The notes beneath the pieces are model-generated. The model did no database searches and was not told the origin of the DNA. It saw only the letters and a list, made by a program, of their open reading frames with translations. A stretch of 64,000 bases of DNA, from positions 133,596 through 197,595 of the forward strand of contig CAVWRW010000002.1 in the NCBI GenBank assembly GCA_963757475.1. The letters are read 5' to 3'. Made by a program: the position numbers and the translations under genes. Below are positions 30,638 through 44,916 of this stretch, piece after piece. The first letter of the stretch is position 1, and each line of letters opens with the position of its first letter. The stretch comes from Candidatus Dormiibacterota bacterium (lineage in GTDB: Bacteria; Chloroflexota; Dormibacteria; Aeolococcales; Aeolococcaceae).

Positions 30638-32274
30638 TGCCCGCCCGTCTGCTGCTGCGCCTGCATCGAATCGGCGCGGTCGCGATGGCGTACTTCTCCA
30701 TCTTCTACGTGCTCGTCAACAGCGCGGTGTATCCGCTGATCGCGGGGAAGACGCGCCTTGCGCAGGAAGCATTCGGTGTCGAGATCACGTCGCTCGGCGC
30801 GCAATTCGCATGGCTGCTGCCGGTGCCCATCCGTCCGGACACCGCAGCGGGATACCTGCAGTGGCGCGGCTACGGTGTGTTCGCGATCGTCTTCGCTGCC
30901 TGGGCAGTCATGAGCGCGTGTGGCGCGGTGCGCCGCGACGAGGACCGTGGGATGGTGGAGACGTGGCTTGCGACGGGCATCTCGCGGATGCGGCTGCTGG
31001 CGACGCGCGCACTGTTCTTTGCTCTGTTGAGCGCAGCGCTGGTCGTCGTCGCCGGATTCTCGGGCTGGCTCGGGATGTCTCATCGCGGGGTCGCCGGCTC
31101 CGGTTGCGGGGCTCGTGGGGGAGAACGCAGCACTCTGGGGGCTGACCCTCGCCTGTTTCGCGATCGGACTCCTGGTTGCGCAGATCGCGCCGGATTTCCG
31201 TTCTGCGGCAGGGATTGCCGCCGGCGGATCATCGTCGTCATGTTCGCCATCGACAGCATCGGGCGCACGAGCATCAACCGCTCGCCGCTCACCGACATCT
31301 CGGTGTTCTTCCTCTTCAACCGTTCGAAGTCGTTCGCCCCGGGCGGCACGTTCGATCCCGTTGCAACCGTTGCGCTGCTGGTTGTCGCGGTGATCGTCGC
31401 GGTCGTTGCCGCACTCGCCTTCTGGTGCCGCGATATCGGTGCCGGCCTCGTCCGGTTGCGACCGCGCGCCGAAGTCCAGACCCGCACTGTCGCTCGCAAC
31501 CCGCTGCTCCGCGTACCGGTGGTGCGCGGTCTCTGGATCCGGCGGGTTGGCTCCGTCCTCTGGATCATCGGCGTTGCCGCCGGGGCGGCCCTGGTGGTCG
31601 ACATCATCAACCTGACGGCGACGTTCTTCCAGAAGACGCCGAGTCTCGCGCCATACCTCCGCGACCTCTCCGGCAACATCCACACTGTGCTGCTCGCGTT
31701 GATCTGGTTCAGCATCGTTCAGGGCGTGCTCGCCATTCTCTCGCATCACGTCCGTCTCGCGCTGGGCGGCGGATGACGCGAGCGGCGTGCTGGAGATGCA
31801 GCTTGCCGAGCCCGTGCCGCGCTGGCGCGTCCTGGTCGAACGTATCGCGGAGCTGATCGTCCTGCTCGTCGCCATCTCGTTCGTCTCGACCGCGGTGATC
31901 CTTGCGCTTGCCCCGGCCAGGGACTGACCATCGACGTCGGAAAGATGCTCGTGGCGACCGCGCTGCTGATCCCGTTCGCGCTCACCTTCGCCGCGTTCGG
32001 GGCGCTCCTCGCAGGCTGGCGTCCGCGAGCGGCTGTCGTGGTGCTGTCGACGGTCACGGCGATCTCATACCTGCTCTTTCAGCTCGCCCCGCTCTTCAAG
32101 TGGCCTGTCTGGGTGGAGAACCTGTCAGTGTTCCAGCTGTATGGCACGCCATTGATCACTGCGGTGTCCGTCGGTGGGCTCATTGCGATGCTCGGCATCG
32201 TCGTCGTGGGCTTCGGGTTTGCGGGCGTCGACGCTGGACGCGGCGTGACATCGCCGCATAGGAGGTTGGCGTGA
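30637..32274 (+). CDS. ABC-2-type exporter permease, two-repeat (antibiotic-exporter-like), frameshifted
   Basis: About 12 hydrophobic segments over ORFs 30517..31776, 31115..31393 and 31945..32274; repeated xxED/xxDD...G..E motif; RDIGAGL. Confidence 0.7.
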
Positions 32275-33098
32275 GCGATGCCCAGGTGGGCGATTCCCGG
32301 ATGAAGGATGCGATCCGCTGCGATGTGGTCGCTCGGCGACTACGGCGCGCTCGCCGTCGCATCTGGAGCCGCACGCCATCGAGCTGGCGCAGCGAAGCCG
32401 CCTGCAACCGGGCAGCGAGGTGCTCGACGTCGCTGCGGGCAACGGCAATTTCGCCATCGCCGCTGCCCGCCTCGGCGCGACGGTCGTGGCAACCGACCTG
32501 ACCCCCGCGATGGTCGAGCTCGGCAAGGCCCGCAGCCGCGAACAAGGCATGGCGATCGAGTGGCTCGAGGCCGACGCCGAGGGGCTGCCGTTTCCCGACG
32601 CGCGCTTCGACGTCGTCGCATCGGTGTTCGGTGCGATGTTCGCCCCGGACCCCGACGCGTTGCGCGGAGCTGTTCCGGGTCACCAAGCCCGGCGGTCTCG
32701 TGGCGATGGCGAACTATGGCCCGAAAGGCTTCCTCCCAGCGATTCACCGCGCTGATGGTCGCGTACGGCTCCGGCGCCGCCGCCGGGCATGCCGTCGCCG
32801 TTCGACTGGGGTGAGACCGATGTGCTGCACAAGCGGTTCAAGGGACTGACGGCGAAGATCGAGGTGTATCCGCAGGCGCTCACCTTCGAGTTCGATTCGC
32901 CAGACGCCGGATGGGAGTTCTGGGAGCGGACCAACCCACCGCTCGTCGGCGTTGAAGATGATGCTCGAGTCCTGAACAGTTCGCAGAGCTCCGCGAGGAG
33001 GGCAAGCGAAGCTGTTCGGCGAGATGAACCAGTCAGCCGGTGGCAGCCGGCTCACGCTCGAGTCGGACTATCTCCAGGTGCTCGCCCGCAAGGCCTGA
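32271..33098 (+). CDS. Class I SAM methyltransferase (frameshifted)
   Basis: MWSLGDY, VLDVAAGNGN, ADAEGLPFPDARFDVVASVFGAMFAP, SPFDWG, SDYLQVLARKA*. Confidence 0.85.
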
Positions 33099-34659
33099 TC
33101 GCTCGCGCGCCGCGATGATCGCGTACTCGAACGCGTCGGCAAGCGCGCTCCATGAGGCCTCGATGATGTTCGTGCTGCAGCCGACGGTGCTCCAGCGTCG
33201 ATGGTGGTCGCCGCTCTCCACGAGCACGCGCACGCCGGCGGCGGTGCCATCGCGTCCGTCGAGCACGCGCACCTTGTAGTCGAAGAGCTGCGTCGCTCCG
33301 ATCTCCGGATAGCCGGCGACAGCGCCTTGCGCAACGCCGCGTCGAGCGCATTGACAGGGCCGTTTCCCTCGGCGGCGGTGTGCACCACGGCGTCGCCGAC
33401 CTGCACCTTGATCGTCGCCTCGCAGACCAGCGAGCGGCCTTCGCGCTGCTCGACGAGCGCGATGTAGTCGATGAGCGTGAACGGCGCGACGTTGCCGCGC
33501 GCGCGGTGGACGAGCAGTTCGAAAGATGCCTCCGCACCCTCGAACGAATGGCCGCTGTGCTCGAGGCGTTTGACCTCGTCCGCGACGCGCCGGGCGAGCG
33601 CCTGGTCCTGGGTGAGGTCGACGCCGAATGCCGCCGCCTTCTCCAGCACGGTGCCGCGTCCGGACTGCTGCGTGATCACAGAGTGCCGCTGATTGCCGAC
33701 GCGCGCCGGGTCGATGTGCTGATACGCGTATGACGCCTTGCTCATCGCGTCGATGTGCTGGCCGCCCTTGTGCGTGAACGCGGCCTGACCGATATACGGT
33801 GCGGAGAGCGGCGGCGAGATGTTGGCGATCTCCGCAACGTCACGCGCGACCTCCGTGAGTCGCGCCAGCTGCTCGTCGTCGATGACGCGAATGCCCATCT
33901 TGAGCTGCAGGTTGGGGATGAGCGTGCAGAGGTTCGCGTTGCCGGTGCGCTCGCCGTAGCCGTTGATGCAGCCCTGCACCTGCACGGCGCCGGCGCGTAC
34001 CGCGGCGAGCGTGTTCGCGACGGCGCACCCGGAGTCGTCATGGCAGTGGATGCCGGCGATACTGCCGAAGCGCGCGGTGATGTCGCGGACGACCGACTCC
34101 ACCTGGTCGGGGAGCGTCCCGCCGTCGCGTGTCGCACAGCGTCACGCGTTCGGCGCCGGCACTGACCGCGGCATCGAGGCAGCGCAGTGCGTAGTCCGGG
34201 TCGCTGCGTGGCCGTCGAAGAAATGCTCCGCGTCGAACACGACCCGCCGTCCCTGCGTCGACGAGCCAGCGCACCGAATCGGCGATCATCGCGAGGTTCT
34301 CGTCCGTCGTCGTGCGCAGGACGTCGACGACCTGCCGGTCCCAGGTCTTGCCGACCAGCGTGATCATCGGCGCCATCGAGTCGAGCAGCGTGCGTAGCTG
34401 CGAGGTCGTCCTGCGGTCGCATGCCCGGTCGCCGGGTGGCGCCGAATGCGGCGAGCGTCGCGTTGCGCAGGGGGTGCATGCGCATCGCGGCAAAGAACTC
34501 GGTGTCGGTGGGATTCGCGCCGGGCCAGCCGCCCTCGACCACCGTGACCCCGAGTGTGTCGAGATGCTCGGCGATGCGCAGCTTGTCGGACACCGAGAAG
34601 TTGATGCCGACTCCCTGCGCGCCGTCGCGCAGCGTCGTGTCGTAGATCTCGAGGCTCAC
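33033..34659 (-). CDS. cimA: Citramalate synthase, bacterial type (frameshifted)
   Basis: YDTTLRDGAQG, EGGWPGANPTD, GIHCHDDSGCAVAN, GCINGYGERTGNANL, AFTHKGGQH, WSTVGCSTNIIEASW. Confidence 0.85.
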
Positions 34660-35750
34660 GAGGCGGCTCCGATGACGCGGCGAGCGCGCGCATCGCCTCG
34701 CGTGACACTGCGTCAGCGACGGCATCGTGCTCGCGTTGCCGCCGAGGTCCGGCGGTGAGCACGTCCTCGCTGATGCAGACATCGACGGCGGCCTCGATGG
34801 CGGCGGCGAGATCGTCGCGATGCAGCGAGTGACGGAGCATCATCGCCACCGAGAGGATGGCGCCGTACGGGTTGGCGACGCCCCTGCCCGCGAGGCTCGG
34901 TGCGCTGCCATGGATCGGCTCGTACAGTCCCTGGTCGGTGGCGCCGAGGCTGGCGGACGGCAGCAGCCCGAGCGAGCCGGCGAGCACGGCGGCCTCGTCG
35001 CTGAGGATGTCGCCGAAGAGGTTCTCGGCGACGATCACGTCGACGGTCGCCGGCTCGCGAACCAGGCGCATGGCGAAGGAGTCGACGAGCTCGTGTGTCA
35101 GCGTCACGGTCGGGTACTCGGGGGCGAGCGCGCTGACCACCTCGCGCCAGAGCTGGCTCGTGATGAGCACGTTGGCCTTGTCGATCGAGATGAGCTCGCC
35201 GCGCCGGCCGCCGCAAGCGCGAACGCGACGCGCGCGACTCGCTCGATCTCCGCGGCGCTGTACACGATGCTGTCGCGCGCGATCTCGGCTGGGCCGGTGC
35301 CGGTGCGGCCGCGTGGCTGCCCGAAGTACGCGCCGCCCGGTGAGCTCGCGCACCACGATGAGGTCGGTGCCCTTGACGACGTCGCGGCGCAGCGGCGTGC
35401 GTCGGCGAGATGCGGATGCACGCGAACCGGCCGGACATTGGCGAACACGTCGAGCTCGCTGGCGCAGCTTGAGCAGCCCCGCCTCGCAGCGGTGCTCGCC
35501 GCGCAGGTGGTCCCATGCGGGTCCGCCGACGGCGCCGAGCAGCACGGCGTCCGCGTCGCGGCAGGCGTCGAGCGTCTCGTCGGGCAGCGGCGTGCCGTAC
35601 TCGTCGATGGCGCGGCCGCCGATGACGTGCACGTCGATGTTGATCTCCGCATCAGCGGCGGTGCACACGCCGGCGAGCACGCTGAGCGCGGCGTTGACCA
35701 CCTCGGGGCCGATCCCGTCGCCGGGGAGGACGACGACGTTCGCCGTCAGG
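34656..35750 (-). CDS. leuB: 3-isopropylmalate dehydrogenase (frameshifted; start unclear)
   Basis: VLPGDGIGPEV, AVLLGAVGGP, VRELTG, DKANVL, ENLFGDILSDEA, YEPIHGSAP. Confidence 0.93.
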
Positions 35751-36362
35751 CCCGGAGACCCGGTGCGGCTGAGATCAGGCATCCACGCCGGCCGCTGCGC
35801 CTCGAACGCGGTGATCGCCTCCTCGTGCTCGAGCGTCGAGGAGATGTCGTCGAGGCCCTCGAGCAGACGCTTGCGCACGAACGGGTCGAGGTGGAAGCCA
35901 AAGCGCAGGTCGCCGCACGTCACCGTCTCGGTGACGAGGTCGACCGCGACCGTGATGCCGGGCTGCTCGGTCGCGAGGTCGATCAGGGCGCGAACCTCGT
36001 GCTCCGGCAACGGCACCGGCAAGCCCGCTGCCGAGCGCGTTGGTGCTGAAGATGTCGCCGAACGACTCGGAGATCACGGCGCGGATGCCGTGGTCGGCAA
36101 GCGCCCACACCGCGTGCTCTCGCGACGAGCCGCAGCCGAAGTTGCGACCGGTGACGAGCACGGTTCCCGCTCGTATGCCTGCTGGTTGAGCACGAAGTCC
36201 GACGCGGGCACCGGCGTCGCGCCGCCAGTCGTTGAACAGGAACTCGCCGTAGCCGTTGCGCTCGATGCGCTTCAGGAACTGCTTGGGGATGATCTGATCG
36301 GTGTCGACGTCGGAGCGATCGAGCGGGACGAGGACACCCTCCTCGCGCTGAAACGGCTTCAT
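35751..36362 (-). CDS. leuD: 3-isopropylmalate dehydratase small subunit (frameshifted; reads in frame into leuB as given)
   Basis: [36 protein letters not shown]...FEAQRPAW. Confidence 0.93.
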
Positions 36363-37785
36363 GCGCGTGCACCGCGGCGTCGAGTTGCCGGACGTCGACG
36401 AAGTGACCTTCGACTGCTGCCGCCGCGGCCATCACCGGCGAGACGAGATGCGTGCGCCCGCCGCGGCCCTGCCGGCCTTCGAAGTTGCGGTTGCTCGTGC
36501 TCGCGCATCGTTCGCCGGGCTGGAGGATGTCGGGGTTCATGCCGAGGCACATCGAGCATCCCGGGTTGCGCCATTCCGCGCCTGCGTTGCGGAAGATCGC
36601 GTCCAGTCCTTCGGTCTCCGCCTGCAGCTTCACCTGCGCCGAACCCGGGACGACGAGCATGCGCAGGCCGGCATGCACGCGCCGTCCGTCCAGCACGGCG
36701 CGGCAGCGCGCAGATCCTCGATGCGGCCGTTTGTGCAGGAGCCGAGGAAGACGGTGTCGAGCGCGATGTCGGCGATCGGCGTGCCCGGCTCGAGTCCCAT
36801 GTACGCAAGCGCGCGCGTCGCCAACTCGCGCTCGGCTGCATCGGCGAACGACTCGGGGTCCGGCACGTGTCCGCTCACGGGAACCGACTGCGCAGGCGTC
36901 GTTCCCCACGTCACGGTCGGCTCGAGCGTGGCCGCATCGATGGTCACCGAGCGGTCGTAGCGCGCGCCGGGGTCGCTGCGCAGCTCGCTCCACGCGGCGA
37001 CCGCGGCATCCCACTGCTCGCCGCGCGGCGCGTAGGGGCGGTTCGCGATGTACGCGATCGTGACGTCGTCCGGCGCGATCATCCCCGCGCGGCCGCCGCC
37101 TTCGATCGTGAGGTTGCAGAGGGTCATGCGCTGCTCCATCGAGAAGCCGCGCACCACGGGACCGGTGTACTCGACGACGTGGCCCGCGGCGCCGGCGGTG
37201 CCGATGGCGTTCAGGACGCCGAGCGCCGTGTCCTTGGCCGTGACACCGGGCGGCAGCGCTCCCTCGATGCGCACCTCCATCGTCAGCGGCCGCGCCTGGC
37301 GCAGGCACTGGGTGGCGAGCACGTGCTCGACCTCCGAGGTGCCGATGCCGAGCGCGAAGGCGCCGAAGGCGCCGTGCGTCGCGGTGTGCGAGTCGCCGCA
37401 GACGATGACGCTCCCGGGGAGTGTGAGGCCGAGCTCCGGGCCGATGACGTGCACGATCCCCTGCCAGCGGTGGCCGGCGCCGAAGCAGGCGATGCCCGAC
37501 TCGTCGCAGTTGCGGCGCAGCGTGTCCATCTGCGCGACGCTCATCTCGTCGGCACCGCCGAATTGCCCGTCGGTGCCCGTGGTCGGCACGTTGTGGTCCA
37601 TCGTGGCAACAACGAGCCCGGGGCGGCGAACGGGCCGGCCCTCCATGCGAAGGCCTTCGAAGGCCTGTGGCGAGGTGACCTCGTGGACGAGGTGCAGGTC
37701 GACGTAGAGGAGCGCGGGCTCGCCGTCGCTCTCCGCGACAACGTGCGCGTCCCAGATCTTGTCGAAGAGGGTGCGTGGGCGTCAT
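36359..37785 (-). CDS. leuC: 3-isopropylmalate dehydratase large subunit (frameshifted)
   Basis: [70 protein letters not shown]. Confidence 0.95.
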
Positions 37786-39350
37786 TCGGCGACAGCGACC
37801 GCCACGCTGCCAGCTGCTTCGGGGTGATGCGCGGGCCGGCGGCGACACGCGCGGTGAGCCGGTTCAGCGCGTGCACGTATGCCTTCGCGGCGGCGACGAG
37901 GATGTCGGTGTCGGCGCCGTGGCCTGCGCTGAGCGACGCCATTCTTGGCGGAGACGGACGGTCACCTCACCGACAGCATCCATGCCTTCGGTGATCGCCT
38001 GGATCGCGAACTCCTCGAGCTCGGCGTTGCATCTGCACAAGTGAGTTCGATCGCCCGATACGCGGCATCGACCGGACCGTCGCCGGTCGACACGGCCTCG
38101 CGGCTGACCCCGTCGCTGAGGAGCATGCGCACCGTTGCAGTCGGTCGCATGTTCGTCCCGCAGCTCACCTGGAGATGCTCGAGGCGGAAGGTCTCCTCGC
38201 CGCCCTGCCGCTCGTCGGCGACGATCGCCTCGAGGTCGCGGTCGGTCACGTCGCGCTTGCGGTCCGCGAGGCTCTTGAAACGCACAAATGCGCGCTGCAA
38301 CTCTTCACCGTCGAGGCGGTAGCCGAGCTGCTCGAGGCGATCGCGCAGCGCGTGGCGCCCGCTCAGCTTGCCGAGCACGAGCGTCGATCCGGCGCCGACC
38401 TGACCGGGCTCCATGATCTCGAACGTCCGACGGTCCTTGAGCATGCCGTCCTGGTGAATGCCCGAGTGGTGCGCGAACGCGTTGGCGCCGACAACGGACT
38501 TGTTCGGCTGCACGAGCATGCCGGTGAGCTGCGAGACGAGCCGCGAGGTTCGATACAGCTGCGAATGGTCGAGCTGCGTGGTGACGCCGTACACCTCCGG
38601 GTGCAGCGCCGTCGCCATCGCGACCTCCTCGAGCGCGGCGTTGCCCGCGCGCTCGCCGATACCGTTGACGCACGTCTCGATCTGGCGCGCTCCGCCGAGC
38701 ACGCTGACGAGCGAGTTGGCTGTGGCGAGGCCGAGGTCGTTGTGGCAGTGGACCGAGAGCACGACGTCGCGCAGCGCGGGCACCTGCTCGTACATCCAGC
38801 CGATCAGCTCGCGCCATTCGTCCGGCGTCGCGTATCCCACGGTGTCCGGGAAGGTTGATCGTGTTCGCTCCGGCCTCGATGCATCCGTTGACGACCTCGG
38901 CGAGGTACTCACGCTCGGTGCGACTCGAGTCCATGGGTGAGAACTCGACGTCGTCTCGGAAGGACTTCGCCAGCGCTGCCATCTCCACCGCGTGGTCGTA
39001 GACCTGGCGCTGTGTCATGTGCAGCTGGCCTTCGCGATGGATCGGCGAGGTGCCGATGAACGTGTGGATGCGCGCGCGAGCAGCCGGTTCGAGCGCAGCC
39101 GCGCACGCGCGCACATCGGCTTCGAAACAGCGCGAGAGTCCGGCGATGATCGGCCCTTCAACCTGCTCGGCGATCGCCTTGACAGCCGCGAAGTCACCAG
39201 GGGAACTGTGCGGGAAGCCCGCTTCGATCACGTCGACACGAAGCCGTGCCAGCTGATGCGCGATCTGCAGCTTGTCCTCCGCGTTGAGCGCAACCCCCGG
39301 GGACTGCTCACCGTCACGGAGCGTTGTGTCGAGGATGACGAGGCTCTCGG

Positions 39351-39354
<4 letters not shown>
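37782..39354 (-). CDS. leuA: 2-isopropylmalate synthase (frameshifted)
   Basis: [57 protein letters not shown]. Confidence 0.93.
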
Positions 39355-40406
<1,052 letters not shown>

Positions 40407-40431
40407 GAAAGGTCGCCTCCTCTGGGGTGCT

Positions 40432-41013
40432 TCACACGGTGCCGGTGGTATCGCCCGCCACGCCGGGCACGCTCGCTGCCGCCGGCTGGTCGTCGCCGTC
40501 GAGGGCGAAGTCCATCAGCCGGATCCGGGCCTGATCGCCGCGAACAAGCGCAACGACACCGCTGCGCGCCAGTTCCTTGATGCCGTACGGACGCATCAAC
40601 TCGATGAAGTTGTCGATCTTCTCGGCGCTGCCGGTGACCTCGATGATGACCGAGCTCGCCGCGACGTCCACGACGCGGCCCCGGAAGATGTCGACGAGGT
40701 TGAGGATCTCCGTGCGCTCGCCTTGCGGGGCATGCATCCTGATCAGCACGAGCTCGTGCGCGACGTTGCGAAGTCCGGTGATGTCATCGATGGTGATGAC
40801 ATCGATGAGCTTCGCCAGCTGTTTTGTGGCCTGCTCGGCTTGCTGGCGGCCGACGTGCACGGTGATCGTCATGCGCGAGACCGAGTCATCGTCGGTGGGT
40901 CCCACCGACAGGGAGTCGATGTTGAAGCCGCGCCGCCGGATCATCGAGGCGACGCGCTGGAGCACACCCGGCTTGTTGTCGACGAGGACCGAGAGCAGAC
41001 GGCTCTGAGTCAT
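40432..41013 (-). CDS. ilvN: Acetolactate synthase small (ACT) subunit
   Basis: [33 protein letters not shown]. Confidence 0.95.
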
Positions 41014-42775
41014 CAACTCGCCTCGACGAAGTCGAGCATGCCCAGGCCGAGCGGCACGATCGGATACACGTTGGCGTTGGGATCGATGTTGAAGTTGAGC
41101 AGCACCGGTCCCTTGTGCGCGATCGCTTCGTCAAGGAGACGCGGCACGTCCTCGATACGATCGGTGGACATCGCCTTCATGCCGAATGCGTCGCCGAGCT
41201 TGACGAAGTCGGGCGTGAACGTCAGGTCCACAGCAGATCGGACGCCGTCGTAGAAGTCGTCCTGGAACTGGCGGACCATGCCGAGCGACGAGTTGTTCAA
41301 GATGATGACGTTGACGTCGATGTTGTTCTCGACCATCGTCGCCATCTCCTGCATGTTCATCACGAAGCCGCCTTCGCCGGTGACGCAGAACACCGTCTTG
41401 TGCGGGTTGGCGAGCTTCGCGCCCATCGACGCCGGGAACGCGTACCCCATGTCCCGGTGCCGCCGGAGTTGAGGAACAGTCCGGGCTTTCGATAGCTGAA
41501 CCAGAGCGCGGCCCAGATCTGGTTCTGGCCGACGTCGGCGAGCACGATCGCCTCGTCCTCGCAACGCGCATACATCGCCTCGAGCACTTCCTGCGGTTGG
41601 AGGAGCCCGTTGTGGTTCGTGTATCGCACCGGATGCTCTTCCTTCCACTGGTCGATCTGCGTCAGCCACTGGTGCTCGCGCTTCGGCTCCACGAGCAGGT
41701 TGAGCTCGCGGAGCGCGACCTTGGCGTCAGCGACGACGCTGACGTGTGGGACGACGTTCTTGCCGATCTCGGCAGGGTCGATGTCGATGTGGACGAGGTG
41801 CTCGACGCGCGGGGCGAAGGAGTCGAGACGCGTGGTGACGCGGTCATCGCAGCGCATCCCGATCATGATCAGCACGTCCGCGTCGCACACCGCCTTGTTC
41901 GTAAAGCCGGCGCCCATGAACCCGACCATCTGCAGTGCCATCGGATCGGTGACGGGGAAGGCCCCGGTGCCGAGCAGCGTCCAGCCCACTGGGATGTGCG
42001 CCTGATGCGCCAGCTCGAGCAACTCCTCCTCGGCACCGGCGATGAGCACGCCGCGTCCCGCTAGGATCACGGGACGCTTGGCGCCCTCGATCAGCTGTGC
42101 GATACGCCGGATTTTCGCGGGATCGGGGAGTGGCGGAGCGGGGTAGGAGCGCCGTCGCACCGGACCCTCCGGATAGTTGAATGGGGTCTTCGCCGCCTGG
42201 AGGTCCTTGGGAAAGTCGATGAGCACCGGTCCGGGCCGGCCGGTCCGTGCGATGTGGAACGCCTCCTTGATCGTCGGGGCGATGTCCTCAACGCGGGTGA
42301 TCAAGTAGGAGTGCTTGACGACCGACATCGTCGAACCGATCACATCGGACTCCTGGAAGCTGTCGGTGCCGATGGCGGTGCTTGGCACCTGCCCGGTGAT
42401 GGCGACCACCGGCACGGAATCCATGTACGCGGTCGCAAGTCCCGTCACGAGGTTGAGCGCGCCGGGGCCGCTCGTCGCAAAGACCACCCCGACCGATCCG
42501 CGCTTGCTGCGCGCGTAGCCGTCGGCGGCGTGGGCGCCGCCCTGCTCGTGCCGGACGAGGATGTGATGCAGCTCGGGGTAGTCGGGCAAGTACCGGTACA
42601 GCCAGAGGTTGGCTCCGCCGGGATACCCGAAGATGGTGTCGACACCCTCGCGGATGAGCGACTCGAGGGCGACCTGGGCGCCGGTGAGCAGGCGCGCGGG
42701 TTCCGTCGCGCGCTCCGACAGCGGTGTTGCGGCCGCGACCGCCCCCGAGCGACGATCCGTTCGGGCGCTGATCAC
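41013..42775 (-). CDS. ilvB: Acetolactate synthase large subunit (frameshift near 41460)
   Basis: IFGYPGGA, RHEQGG, TGQV, FQESD, GRPGPVLID, DVGQNQ, GEGGFVMN, GMVRQFQ. Confidence 0.95.
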
Positions 42776-42972
42776 TGGTAGTAGCGGCTGAGCGATCGGC
42801 GCACGAATTCGTCGCTCTCATCGTGAGCTCGCGTCGTGCCTGGTGCATGTCGCTCCGCGCGCACGGCTTCGAAGCGCTCGGCGGGAGTGCCATCCTCATG
42901 CGCTCGCATGTCCATGCGTGGTGGTGTCCCCATCCCGTCGTAGGGGGTGGGTGCCTGTCCCGATCCGGCCAT
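42772..42972 (-). CDS. Hypothetical 66-aa protein, first ORF after the attenuator
   Basis: AAGGAGG (42980-42986) 7 nt before the ATG; its TGA overlaps the ilvB GTG. Confidence 0.55.
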   Translation of the reverse strand: MAGSGQAPTPYDGMGTPPRMDMRAHEDGTPAERFEAVRAERHAPGTTRAHDESDEFVRRSLSRYYQ

Positions 42973-43003
42973 GACGAAGCCTCCTTGTGGTGATGCCGGT
43001 GAA

Positions 43004-43037
43004 CAAAAAAAGGCCCCCTCCTGGGAGGGGGCCTTTT
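43004..43037 (-). terminator. Intrinsic terminator of the ilv-leu attenuator
   Basis: Minus strand AGGCCCCCTC-CCAG-GAGGGGGCCT followed by a U7 tract. Confidence 0.9.
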
Positions 43038-43061
43038 GCTTCTTTCCGGCTGGTGCTGGGT

Positions 43062-43157
43062 TTACCTGCGCACGCGCCTGGTCTGAAGCCTGATGGCCCC
43101 GCTCCTAATCAGGAGCAGGCCAACCAGCAGAACCAGGACGGACGCGTACGACGACAT
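43062..43157 (-). CDS. Branched-chain amino acid attenuator leader peptide, 31 aa
   Basis: MSSYASVLVLLVGLLLIRSGAIRLQTRRVRR*; 10 of codons 7-17 are Leu/Val/Ile; directly upstream of the terminator. Confidence 0.85.
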   Translation of the reverse strand: MSSYASVLVLLVGLLLIRSGAIRLQTRRVRR

Positions 43158-43165
43158 TGCCGCGA

Positions 43166-43195
43166 AGGATAAGGCCTGATCGTTCGCCACGTCAA
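43166..43195 (-). promoter_or_regulatory. Sigma70-type promoter of the ilv-leu operon
   Basis: TTGACG (43190-43195), 18-nt spacer, TATCCT (43166-43171), 8 nt before the leader ATG. Confidence 0.7.
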
Positions 43196-43221
43196 CACAC
43201 GGAGTTGTGACGGCCGCGCCG

Positions 43222-43227
43222 TATGCT
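43222..43227 (+). promoter_or_regulatory. -10 element for probably leaderless ilvD
   Basis: TATGCT 7 nt before ATG 43235; no Shine-Dalgarno. Confidence 0.55.
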
Positions 43228-43234
43228 TCCGCGA

Positions 43235-44916
43235 ATGACTGACGCGCGTGCGACTCGCCGCAGCGCCGTGATGCTGCATGGACCGGATCGCGCGCCCGCG
43301 CGCGCGATGCTCCGCGCGATCGGATTCAGCCGCGAGGATCTCGAGCGTCCGATCATCGGTGTCGGTCATTGCTGGATCGAGACGATGCCGTGCAACTGGA
43401 ATCACCGAGCGCTCGCCGAACGTGTGAAAGCAGGAGTCCGAGCAGCTGGTGGCACGCCGATGGAGTTCAACACCATCGCGGTGAGCGACGGCGTGACGAT
43501 GGGGACGCAGGGGATGAAGGCGTCACTTGTGTCTCGTGAGGTCATCGCCGACTTCGATCGAGCTCGTGACGCGCGGTCACAGCTTCGACGGTCTTGTCCT
43601 CATCGTCGGATGTGACAAGACGATTCCGGCAGCCGCGATGGCGCTGTGCCGGATGGACATTCCCGGGCTCATCCTCTACGGCGGGACGATCCAGCCGGGG
43701 CGGCTCCACGATCGCGACCTCACCGTCCAGGACGTGTTCGAGGCCGTCGGTGCGTACAACGCGGGTCGGATTGACTCCGATGAGCTGCGCGCCGTCGAGG
43801 AGCACGCGTGTCCGGGGGCTGGTGCATGCGCTGGGCAGTACACCGCGAACACGATGAGCAACGCGCTCGAGTTCCTCGGCCTTTCACCTCCCGGTGCCAA
43901 CGCAGTGCCTGCGACGCATCCCGACAAGCCAGCCGTCGCCGAGGCTGCAGGGCGCCTCGCGGTCCAGCTCGTCGAACAGGGCGTCAACCCGCGCTCCATC
44001 GTGAGCCGAGCAGCGATCGAGAATGCCGTCGCCTCCTTCTCGGCAAGCGGCGGCTCGACGAATGCGGTCCTGCATCTGCTCGCCATCGCCGCAGAGGCGG
44101 ACGTGCCGATGACCATCGACGAGGTGGACGCCATCTGCGCGAAGACGCCGATCCTCGCCGACCTGCGGCCGGCTGGTCGCTTCGTCGCGACGGACGTCTT
44201 CGCGGCGGGTGGGCTCGGTGTGCTCATGCAGCGGCTCCTCGAGCTCGGGCTCCTGCACGGCGACGCGCCGACCGTGGATGGACGGACGCTGGCCGAGGTC
44301 GCCGCGGCAGCCGTGGCGACACCCGGGCAGGAGGTGTTCCGCGACGCCGACGATCCGCTGCGTTCGCACGGCGGGATCGCGGTGCTCCGCGGGCAACCTC
44401 GCCGCCGACGGCTGCGTCGTGAAGCTCGCCGGCAATGACCGCGAGTCGCATCGCGGTCCGGCGCGCGTGTTCGACTCGGAGGAGGACGCGTTTGCCGCTG
44501 TTCGCGACGGGAAGATCCAGGCCGGTGACGTCGTCGTGATTCGCTACGAGGGCCCGGTCGGTGGTCCCGGCATGCGCGAGATGCTCGGCGTCACCGGGGC
44601 GATCGTCGGCGCGGGCCTCAGCGATTCGGTCGCGCTGATCACCGATGGACGATTCTCAGGGGCGACCCACGGGTTCATGGTGGCTCACATGGCACCCGAG
44701 GCTGCGCTCGGCGGTGGGCTCGCTGCCGTTCGCGACGGTGATGTCATCAATATCGATGTGGTCGCGCGACGGGTCGACGTCGAACTCGACGAAGCAGCGA
44801 TCGCGGAGCGTCTCGCCACGTGGGCGCCACCAGCCGCGCGTTTCGCCACCGGAGTCTTCGCGAAATATGCGGCGTCTGTGTCGAACGCCAGCCGCGGCGC
44901 AGTTACCGGACGCTGA
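43235..44916 (+). CDS. ilvD: Dihydroxy-acid dehydratase (frameshifted)
   Basis: [70 protein letters not shown]. Confidence 0.96.

Follow-up and report, generated by a model that had tools for sequence, protein, structure and literature searches.

Attenuation by leader peptides is a textbook mechanism that has been described mostly in Proteobacteria and Actinomycetota. Among the described systems, the nearest in design to the one reported here is the IlvL attenuator of Corynebacterium glutamicum (ilvB-II motif), a likeness that we take as functional; its ilvBNC transcript begins 1 nucleotide (nt) from the IlvL start codon and forms three hairpins (PMC11857589). IlvL is an Ile/Val/Leu leader of 15 amino acids (aa) that is made without a ribosome-binding site (PMC11857589; PMC10272879), and mutation of its start codon or of its Val codons alters regulation (PMC11857589, citing Morbach 2000; PMC10272879). 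Other Actinomycetota have candidate ilvB leaders, and the results obtained in Streptomyces coelicolor are ambiguous; mutation of the regulatory codons in its similar-looking ilvB leader was without effect (PMC1262725). Upstream open reading frames (ORFs) are also carried by the ilvB-OMG motif and the ilvB motif, for which attenuation has been proposed or shown (PMC10272879). In this study, we analyzed a stretch of 64,000 nt, hereafter the window, from a metagenome-assembled genome (MAG, 62% complete) of a Candidatus Dormibacterota bacterium (AD3; Chloroflexota class Dormibacteria), and we describe a putative leader-peptide attenuator that is read on the minus strand of the window, ahead of an operon containing ilvB.

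To our knowledge, nothing is known about gene regulation in the Dormibacterota (AD3). The literature that we searched contained nothing joining Dormibacter* with ilvB or with leader-peptide attenuation, in agreement with a preliminary description of this locus, made from the DNA letters alone, which knew of no attenuator described in the lineage.

A conserved attenuator-like element upstream of ilvB

We interpret the element as a ribosome-mediated leader-peptide transcription attenuator of the small ORF-ilvBNC-leuACDB-cimA operon that senses Leu and Val, and we put the probability of this interpretation, which draws on comparative sequence analysis and simulated folding, at roughly 85%. At this locus, the cognate codons are clustered in a short ORF, a terminator precedes the first gene, an antiterminator uses an arm of that terminator, and an anti-antiterminator overlaps the codons. 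The parts listed in the preliminary description, namely a TTGACG-N18-TATCCT promoter, an ATG located 8 nt after the -10 box without a Shine-Dalgarno (SD) sequence, a 31-aa ORF with VLVLLVGLLLI at codons 7-17, and a strong terminator ending in seven U residues, are all present on the minus strand (Table 1).

The analysis was extended to the ilvB upstream regions of 40 relatives and 80 named loci. Leaders of the same design, in which the Leu/Val/Ile codons are followed by a G-rich segment 2 and then by a GC-rich terminator ending in a U-tract, fell into two types. The first, f1, comprises 39 distinct leaders of the host genus and of other Dormibacteria genera, including Ca. Aeolococcus; 37 of these form alignment A1, on which the f1 RNA pairing counts given below are based. 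The second, f2, comprises 11 sequences from a second family within the same order (alignment A2). The element stands directly beside ilvB, with one exact copy of its core motif in 24 of the 25 genomes of the genus and two copies where ilvB is duplicated. In a second MAG that is 96% identical, the leader shows no difference in about 190 nt, and 83 positions differ over 2.3 kb. Judged by these comparisons, this is a real, conserved and operon-specific cis-regulatory element. The more specific proposal of complete, ribosome-mediated attenuation through a near-leaderless ORF is supported by the 50 orthologous leaders, the signs of translation, the antiterminator pairing and the masking of the regulatory codons. 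We infer the transcription start, actual translation of the leader, the response to starvation and the amino acids sensed.

Terminator, antiterminator and anti-antiterminator

The intrinsic terminator (segments 3:4) has a stem of 13 pairs at 43037-43008 (-25.4 kcal/mol) with a U7 tract at 43011-43005. It is 97.9% paired and contains six covarying pairs in the f1 alignment, and no other strong terminator was found in 31500-43300. The possibility of a bidirectional terminator that serves a convergent gene was rejected, as no plus-strand gene ends there.

The 5' arm of this terminator (segment 3) can alternatively form 10 base pairs (bp) with segment 2, a single C being bulged out (-22.3 kcal/mol), as proposed initially, and this antiterminator was borne out both by pairing and by covariation. 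In the 4.3-kb locus, none of the other 1049 windows of 16 nt pairs with segment 3 as well as segment 2 does (the runner-up reached -18.0 kcal/mol), and segment 2 was the top partner of the terminator arm in four of the six loci tested and within the top 2% in the remaining two. The antiterminator is 99.2% paired in alignment A1. At the column pair 98/173, G:C is replaced by A:U in seven sequences that belong to two clades of the ilvB tree, and two G:U intermediates can also be observed. Since the matching position within the terminator itself merely changes from C:G to U:G, the substitution tracks the antiterminator partner.

Segment 2 is shared with the anti-antiterminator (1:2), a hairpin found in the minimum free energy (MFE) fold, whose conserved core is formed by GGCCUGCUCCU and AGGAGCGGGGCC at 43121-43094. 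Unguided RNAalifold analysis recovered the terminator together with a 10-bp hairpin in which codons 13-16 (GGCCUGCUCCU) pair with segment 2, and the inner helix of the anti-antiterminator is 85% paired in the f1 alignment. Folding of the whole leader is more stable than that of shuffled sequences (z = -4.97). Helices within the 60 nt that separate segment 2 from segment 3 were considered as well and were dropped, being only 72-76% paired on a MAFFT alignment.

In the f2 leaders, each sequence's own segment 2 and terminator arm are complementary (-13 to -28 kcal/mol), with a register that varies between genera. Support for the f2 type comes from per-sequence complementarity and from the local-window control.

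In columns 39-52 of alignment A2, a 5-bp hairpin can be observed just 5' of, and partly inside, the CTA GTA codons. It is 100% paired and has two covarying pairs (GGACC, GAGCC or GGGCC against GGUCC, GGCUC or GGCCC), and it may represent a family-specific pause or anti-antiterminator element.

Table 1. Positions of the attenuator, its promoter and the downstream genes in the 64,000-nt window, and of related T-boxes in other loci.
Feature	Position	Strand	Remarks
-35 hexamer TTGACG	43190..43195	-	consensus scan
-10 hexamer TATCCT	43166..43171	-	consensus scan; 18-nt spacer from the -35 hexamer
Leader ORF, 31 codons + TAA	43062..43157	-	no SD, putatively leaderless or near-leaderless; translation MSSYASVLVLLVGLLLIRSGAIRLQTRRVRR
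Regulatory codon run VLVLLVGLLLI, codons 7-17	43107..43139	-	also segment 1, 5' strand of the anti-antiterminator
Anti-antiterminator hairpin (1:2)	43068..43152	-	MFE fold, -48.7 kcal/mol
Segment 2, antiterminator 5' strand, GGAGCGGGGCC	43095..43105	-	shared with the anti-antiterminator
Segment 3, terminator 5' arm and antiterminator 3' strand, GGCCCCCUCC	43024..43033	-	paired with segment 2
Intrinsic terminator, segments 3:4 + U7	43005..43037	-	AAAAGGCCCCCTCC-CAGG-GGAGGGGGCCTTTT
SD AAGGAGG (42986-42980) + 66-aa ORF	42772..42986	-	first cistron after the attenuator; stop overlaps ilvB GTG 42775
Controlled operon ilvB, ilvN, ilvC, leuA, leuC, leuD, leuB, cimA	33068..42775	-	NCBIfam matches, leuB excepted
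T-boxes of the Dormibacteria loci L061, L063, L064, L065, L067, L068, L069	~760-1210 in each		

Signs of translation in the leader and its regulatory codons

The signs that the leader is translated are purely evolutionary and consist of the position of the start codon, whole-codon insertions and deletions (indels), a fixed stop, the codon periodicity of the regulatory run, and a genome-wide signal for leaderless initiation. The start codon, which is ATG or GTG in f1 and TTG or GTG in f2, is always located 8-11 nt past the -10 box in the 50 leaders. The length of the ORF is 29-32 codons in f1, with whole-codon differences only, and 27 codons in all 11 f2 sequences. The stop, TAA at 43064-43062 in the host, occupies one fixed column of the f1 alignment although TAA, TAG and TGA vary there.

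The run at codons 7-17 contains six Leu, three Val, one Ile and one Gly, so that 10 of the 11 codons specify Leu, Val or Ile, and GTT is used twice and ATT once. In the comparison of orthologous ilvB leaders that the preliminary description had suggested, the run proved to be conserved alongside the covarying terminator and antiterminator stems: a comparable Leu/Val/Ile run, ending in ...L-L-I or V-L-V-L-L-I, is kept in all 50 relatives, and positions -4 to -2 are Leu in 37 of the 37 aligned f1 sequences. In the 11 codons before segment 2, the nucleotide entropy at the three codon positions is 0.45/0.15/0.75; the U that all Leu, Val and Ile codons share at their second position hardly varies, and variation is greatest at the third position. 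The 15 codons after the run show no codon periodicity (0.47/0.52/0.50). As the periodicity is confined to the run, selection on Leu/Val/Ile codon identity acts only there, which fits a leader peptide selected solely for the identity of its regulatory codons and argues against a functional small protein.

Rare codons are found at the regulatory positions, where the host genus uses GTT, GTA and ATT. In the host genome, GTT and ATT represent about 7% of the Val and Ile codons and GTA 1.6%, values that somewhat exaggerate codon rarity because the reference ORFs were picked for a high G+C content at third codon positions. In the f2 leaders, GTA and ATT stand at fixed positions in 11 of 11 sequences and CTA is present in 10 of 11; in the ilvB genes of the same family, CTA accounts for 0.5% of the Leu codons and GTA for 0.9% of the Val codons.

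These observations bear on two other explanations. According to the first, the switch works independently of translation: a protein, a small molecule such as guanosine tetraphosphate (ppGpp), or a tRNA stabilises one of the folds, and the ORF is a by-product of constraints on the RNA. Conserved alternative terminator and antiterminator folds would agree with such a switch, ppGpp riboswitches and T-boxes do occur before ilvB genes (PMC10272879), and the S. coelicolor leader mentioned above is indifferent to codon mutations (PMC1262725). However, a start codon kept in place after the -10 box while ATG, GTG and TTG vary, indels of whole codons only, a fixed stop, an invariant second-position U combined with a free third position, and rare codons within the run are features not expected without translation, and they count against this explanation, which we consider improbable. 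Furthermore, when the window was scanned with the Rfam 15 covariance models, both at the gathering score and permissively, only two tRNAs reached the gathering score; whether the ilvB-OMG motif is among those models was not checked. The best matches below threshold were Phe_leader (25 bits) and Thr_leader (24.7 bits), the cut-off being 55 for both.

According to the second explanation, a small hydrophobic membrane peptide is encoded by the 31-codon ORF, which would be an ordinary gene ending in a terminator of its own; expression of the operon would rely on constitutive read-through or on a different promoter, and segments 2 and 3 would be complementary by chance. The f1 peptide does resemble a single membrane helix with R/K residues after it, the conservation of its sequence is fair, and a Flp-pilin-like small hydrophobic ORF with a terminator exists elsewhere in the genome. 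Against this, the C-terminal half shows no codon periodicity and therefore no constraint at the peptide level, and the f2 leaders share the same RNA design although they contain charged residues and a hydrophobic run of only 5-7 residues. The antiterminator covaries with the terminator arm, the element is present in single copy and always directly before the ilvB operon, a T-box takes its place in relatives, and no second promoter-like site was found before ilvB. A membrane peptide gene is thus very improbable in our view; the reading as a small membrane protein was rejected on the codon periodicity, which is absent after the run, and because a membrane span is not found in all homologues. No Pfam or NCBIfam match to the leader peptide was obtained.

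Simulated ribosome stalling and the proposed mechanism

The effect of a stalled ribosome was simulated by masking 28 nt around a chosen aminoacyl-site (A-site) codon and folding the transcript up to segment 3. Without a ribosome, 0 of the 10 antiterminator pairs were formed, and segment 2 was held in the 1:2 hairpin. With the A site at codons 7-10, six of the 10 pairs were predicted; all 10 were predicted at codons 11-14, six at codon 15, five at codon 16, and none at codon 17 (the sole Ile codon) or 18, where the ribosome covers segment 2. The comparison of masked and unmasked folds suggested in the preliminary description thus gave the full antiterminator when codons 11-14 were masked and none without the mask.

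Because masking at codons 11-14 yields the full antiterminator, the Leu and Val codons in this part of the run are well placed for sensing, and Leu and Val are the amino acids likely to be sensed. The sole ATT codon precedes the antiterminator strand by 2 nt, and this strand would therefore be hidden beneath any ribosome that stalls at the codon. Sensing of Ile in the host genus is therefore doubtful according to the model, and the original proposal that one leader integrates all three branched-chain amino acids is not supported with respect to Ile. Certain other genera have an Ile within the effective part of the run.

The following mechanism would account for these predictions. Transcription would start 0-2 nt before the AUG at 43157, and the leader ORF would be translated without a SD sequence. 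Given an ample supply of charged tRNA-Leu and tRNA-Val, the ribosome would pass through VLVLLVGLLLI to the stop at 43064. Behind it, or if translation fails, segment 1 (codons 13-16, GGCCUGCUCCU) would pair with segment 2 (AGGAGCGGGGCC), leaving the terminator at 43037-43008 and its U7 tract free to form, and transcription would end ahead of the small ORF and ilvB. Under a shortage of either charged tRNA, the ribosome would stall with its A site at about codons 10-15, covering segment 1 and leaving segment 2 free; segment 2 could then pair with GGCCCCCUCC as soon as the latter is transcribed, the terminator would not form, and RNA polymerase would enter the operon.

In the full-length transcript, the energies of the antiterminator and terminator folds differ by 0.1-2.2 kcal/mol when the ribosome is placed at codon 9 or 14, and with a ribosome at codon 12 the terminator is better by 8.5 kcal/mol. 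With energies that are near-equal or favour the terminator, the antiterminator would have to benefit from the order in which the RNA is made, which is the usual situation in attenuators.

It is important to mention that several observations weigh against the interpretation as an attenuator. The outer helices of the anti-antiterminator are just 68-83% paired in the 37 f1 sequences, and the leader without the 3' arm of the terminator is no more stable than shuffled sequences (z = -1.38), the anti-antiterminator hairpin therefore being unexceptional on energy alone. In f2, the antiterminator in one fixed register of 10 pairs is 82.6% paired and shows zero compensatory changes. With a ribosome at the stop codon, six of the 10 antiterminator pairs are still predicted in the truncated transcript, so that termination under amino acid sufficiency would need kinetics, release of the ribosome or re-formation of the 1:2 hairpin. 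All of the compared sequences come from MAGs of uncultured organisms, and the host MAG contains indel errors in nearby genes. Finally, the unresponsive codon mutants of S. coelicolor indicate that appearance alone can mislead.

T-boxes at the same position in relatives

In seven Dormibacteria loci (Table 1), a full-length T-box is located at the matching place, ahead of the small ORF and ilvB. These T-boxes score 64-91 bits (E values of 1e-12 to 1e-19), below the Rfam gathering cut-off of 93, and would therefore be missed by standard annotation. The specifier reads CUC (Leu) in the alignment of L069, and CUC was also read by eye in L065, L067 and L068. Among the ilvB loci of other Chloroflexota, three T-boxes were found above the cut-off and a fourth at 64 bits. 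No T-box match was found in the window or elsewhere in the host genome as assembled (62% complete).

In the ilvB tree, the leader-bearing clade (97% support in the Shimodaira-Hasegawa-like approximate likelihood ratio test, SH-aLRT) is sister to the T-box-bearing Dormibacteria. The presence of a T-box at the same position in the sister lineages marks the operon site as one controlled by tRNA charging. Since the leader clade is sister to the T-box clade and more distant Chloroflexota also have T-boxes, the simplest reading is that an ancestral T-box specific for Leu gave way in Dormibacteria to the leaderless leader-peptide attenuator, which took over its exact place; we lean slightly towards this replacement, whose direction and single origin we infer. 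The divergent f2 type would then show that the element diversified after the replacement. If true, this would represent a natural and datable exchange of one of the two known means of reading tRNA charging for the other, and one that widened the signal from Leu alone to Leu and Val.

Promoter and apparent leaderless initiation

The sequence TTGAC is kept at the -35 place in every leader-bearing upstream region that was read, and the -10 element at the matching place is TATCCT, TATTCT, TATGCT, TAGGCT, TAGGGT or CATACT in the relatives. The leader promoter is the sole promoter-like site in 42500-43700, where 0.1 would be expected from shuffled sequences, and also across the 11.8-kb operon region 31500-43300. 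The ATG at 43157-43155 begins 8 nt after the -10 box, and a purine-rich SD sequence is not present ahead of it. Across the host genome, the motif TANNNT shows a sharp peak at 6-10 nt upstream of the first start codon of long ORFs (56 of 631, the background being 1-2 per position), and on account of this peak leaderless initiation appears to be common in the host organism.

The ilvD gene is transcribed divergently from the leader and operon. On the plus strand at 43222-43237, a -10-like TATGCT lies 7 nt ahead of its ATG at 43235, in a stretch that is conserved in relatives, and the ilvD mRNA is probably leaderless as well. The region between the divergent promoters of ilvD and the leader contains, at 43190-43213, a palindrome that is conserved but imperfect (CCGTCACAACTCCGTGTGTTGACG) and overlaps the -35 box; it could be a candidate binding site for a regulator.

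Downstream operon and genome context

The gene order ilvBNC-leuACDB-cimA proposed in the preliminary description was confirmed by NCBIfam for all of the genes except leuB, which was recognised from ORF translations only. The genes are tightly packed or overlapping, and no internal strong terminator or promoter-like site was found across the operon in the scan of 31500-43300.

The first cistron after the attenuator, the 66-aa ORF, belongs to a family of 61-67-aa hydrophilic proteins encoded before ilvB in most of the readable Dormibacteria loci, following a leader-peptide attenuator or a T-box alike. The family is conserved just in its C-terminal ~12 residues ([DE]-[FIV]-[VLF]-[RQ]-x-[SA]-[LIM]-x-R-x-[YF]), and Pfam and NCBIfam searches with the 66-aa ORF gave no match. 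In L115 (~300-560) and L116 (~345-610), both of the f2 family, an extra Cys-rich ORF with the pattern CxxC...CxxC, resembling a zinc ribbon, is located between the terminator and the small ORF.

In a third explanation, the leader ORF is translated and control is exerted mainly on how the small ORF and ilvB are translated or on how stable their mRNA is, e.g., by re-initiation or by unmasking of AAGGAGG. The strong SD sequence of the 66-aa ORF starts 18 nt after the U-tract, ilvB is coupled to that ORF via an overlapping GTGA, and it has been proposed that re-initiation is enhanced by leader genes located near structural genes (PMC4833913). However, the leader stop lies 90 nt ahead of the ATG of the small ORF, the SD sequence falls outside every predicted conserved helix, and the terminator, canonical with its 13 bp and U7, is conserved and shows covarying pairs. 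We therefore give control at this level hardly any weight, and prefer transcription attenuation.

The ilvB gene is split by a 1-nt deletion at ~41451, where GGGAC-ATGG in the host MAG corresponds to GGGACCATGG in the 96%-identical MAG, and leuA, leuC, leuB, cimA and ilvD are also broken across frames. As ilvB and its neighbours are split, the assembly carries indel errors; the broken genes are most likely errors of long-read assembly and not pseudogenes.

When the host genome was crudely scanned for terminators after short ORFs enriched in one amino acid, no further leader-peptide attenuator was revealed. The scan returned only the known leader of ilvB, a gene resembling a Flp pilin and a single spurious match within a membrane-protein gene, and so shows no general use of leader peptides in the lineage, as far as a 62% complete genome goes. 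On contig C11 (~105331-105450, plus strand), a 39-aa ORF (MVEYALILVLIAIVVIVILQVVGK...) with a SD sequence and its own terminator has the look of a Flp-type pilin. In the Rhodothermales MAG loci L083, L106 and L107, short ORFs ending in ...VVLLLPGLIIITV or ...VVFVLPGLVIITI were observed upstream of ilvB, and these probably constitute leader peptides of a class of their own in that lineage, likewise rich in branched-chain amino acids.

Comparison with known attenuators

The case extends leader-peptide attenuation to the Dormibacterota, an uncultured phylum-level soil lineage, and suggests that attenuators driven by leaderless translation are not confined to the Actinomycetota. It also gives annotators a recognisable element that Rfam models fail to detect. 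As relatives use a T-box at the same place, the locus offers a clean natural comparison of two sensors of tRNA charging. The general understanding of attenuation is unchanged by it.

With regard to T-boxes (RF00230), which precede the ilv-leu operon in Bacillus subtilis, in the sister Dormibacteria and in other Chloroflexota, the likeness lies in the genomic position, the choice between terminator and antiterminator, and tRNA charging as the signal. The difference is that a T-box senses uncharged tRNA directly by RNA-RNA contacts, and translation is not needed. The preliminary statement that Firmicutes use T-boxes proved too simple, as the ilv-leu operon of Staphylococcus aureus has a Leu-rich attenuator peptide (PMC5794164). 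The S. aureus leader, the ilvB-OMG motif and the ilvB motif resemble the Dormibacteria leader in having an upstream ORF rich in branched-chain codons before ilv genes, and differ from it in lineage and in RNA sequence.

The enterobacterial leaders ivbL (of ilvBN), ilvL (of ilvGMEDA) and leuL (of leu) share with the Dormibacteria leader the clustered Leu/Val/Ile codons, the 1:2, 2:3 and 3:4 pairings and the intrinsic terminator. They likewise place rare codons in the run. However, they have a SD sequence and a 5' untranslated region, whereas the Dormibacteria leader appears to be leaderless; moreover, their ilv and leu genes are in separate operons, and the Rfam models of these leaders do not match here.

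The design of the C. glutamicum attenuator corresponds most closely, with the same site before ilvBNC, a leader rich in branched-chain amino acids, a near-leaderless start, and anti-antiterminator, antiterminator and terminator hairpins. The near-leaderless ilvB leader noted initially is thus present in Dormibacteria and is not new as a design, given the C. glutamicum transcript start described above. On the other hand, the Dormibacteria leader has 31 codons instead of 15, with its stop codon 27 nt past the antiterminator strand, and the Dormibacteria operon is longer (with leuACDB and cimA) and opens with the conserved 66-aa ORF. The peptides (MTIIRLVVVTARRLP and MSSYASVLVLLVGLLLIRSG...) and the RNAs of the two systems look unrelated in a comparison made by eye, without a model of the ilvB-II motif. 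One system belongs to the Actinomycetota and the other to the Chloroflexota/Dormibacteria, where it is known from sequence alone, and the resemblance between them is taken here as one of function.

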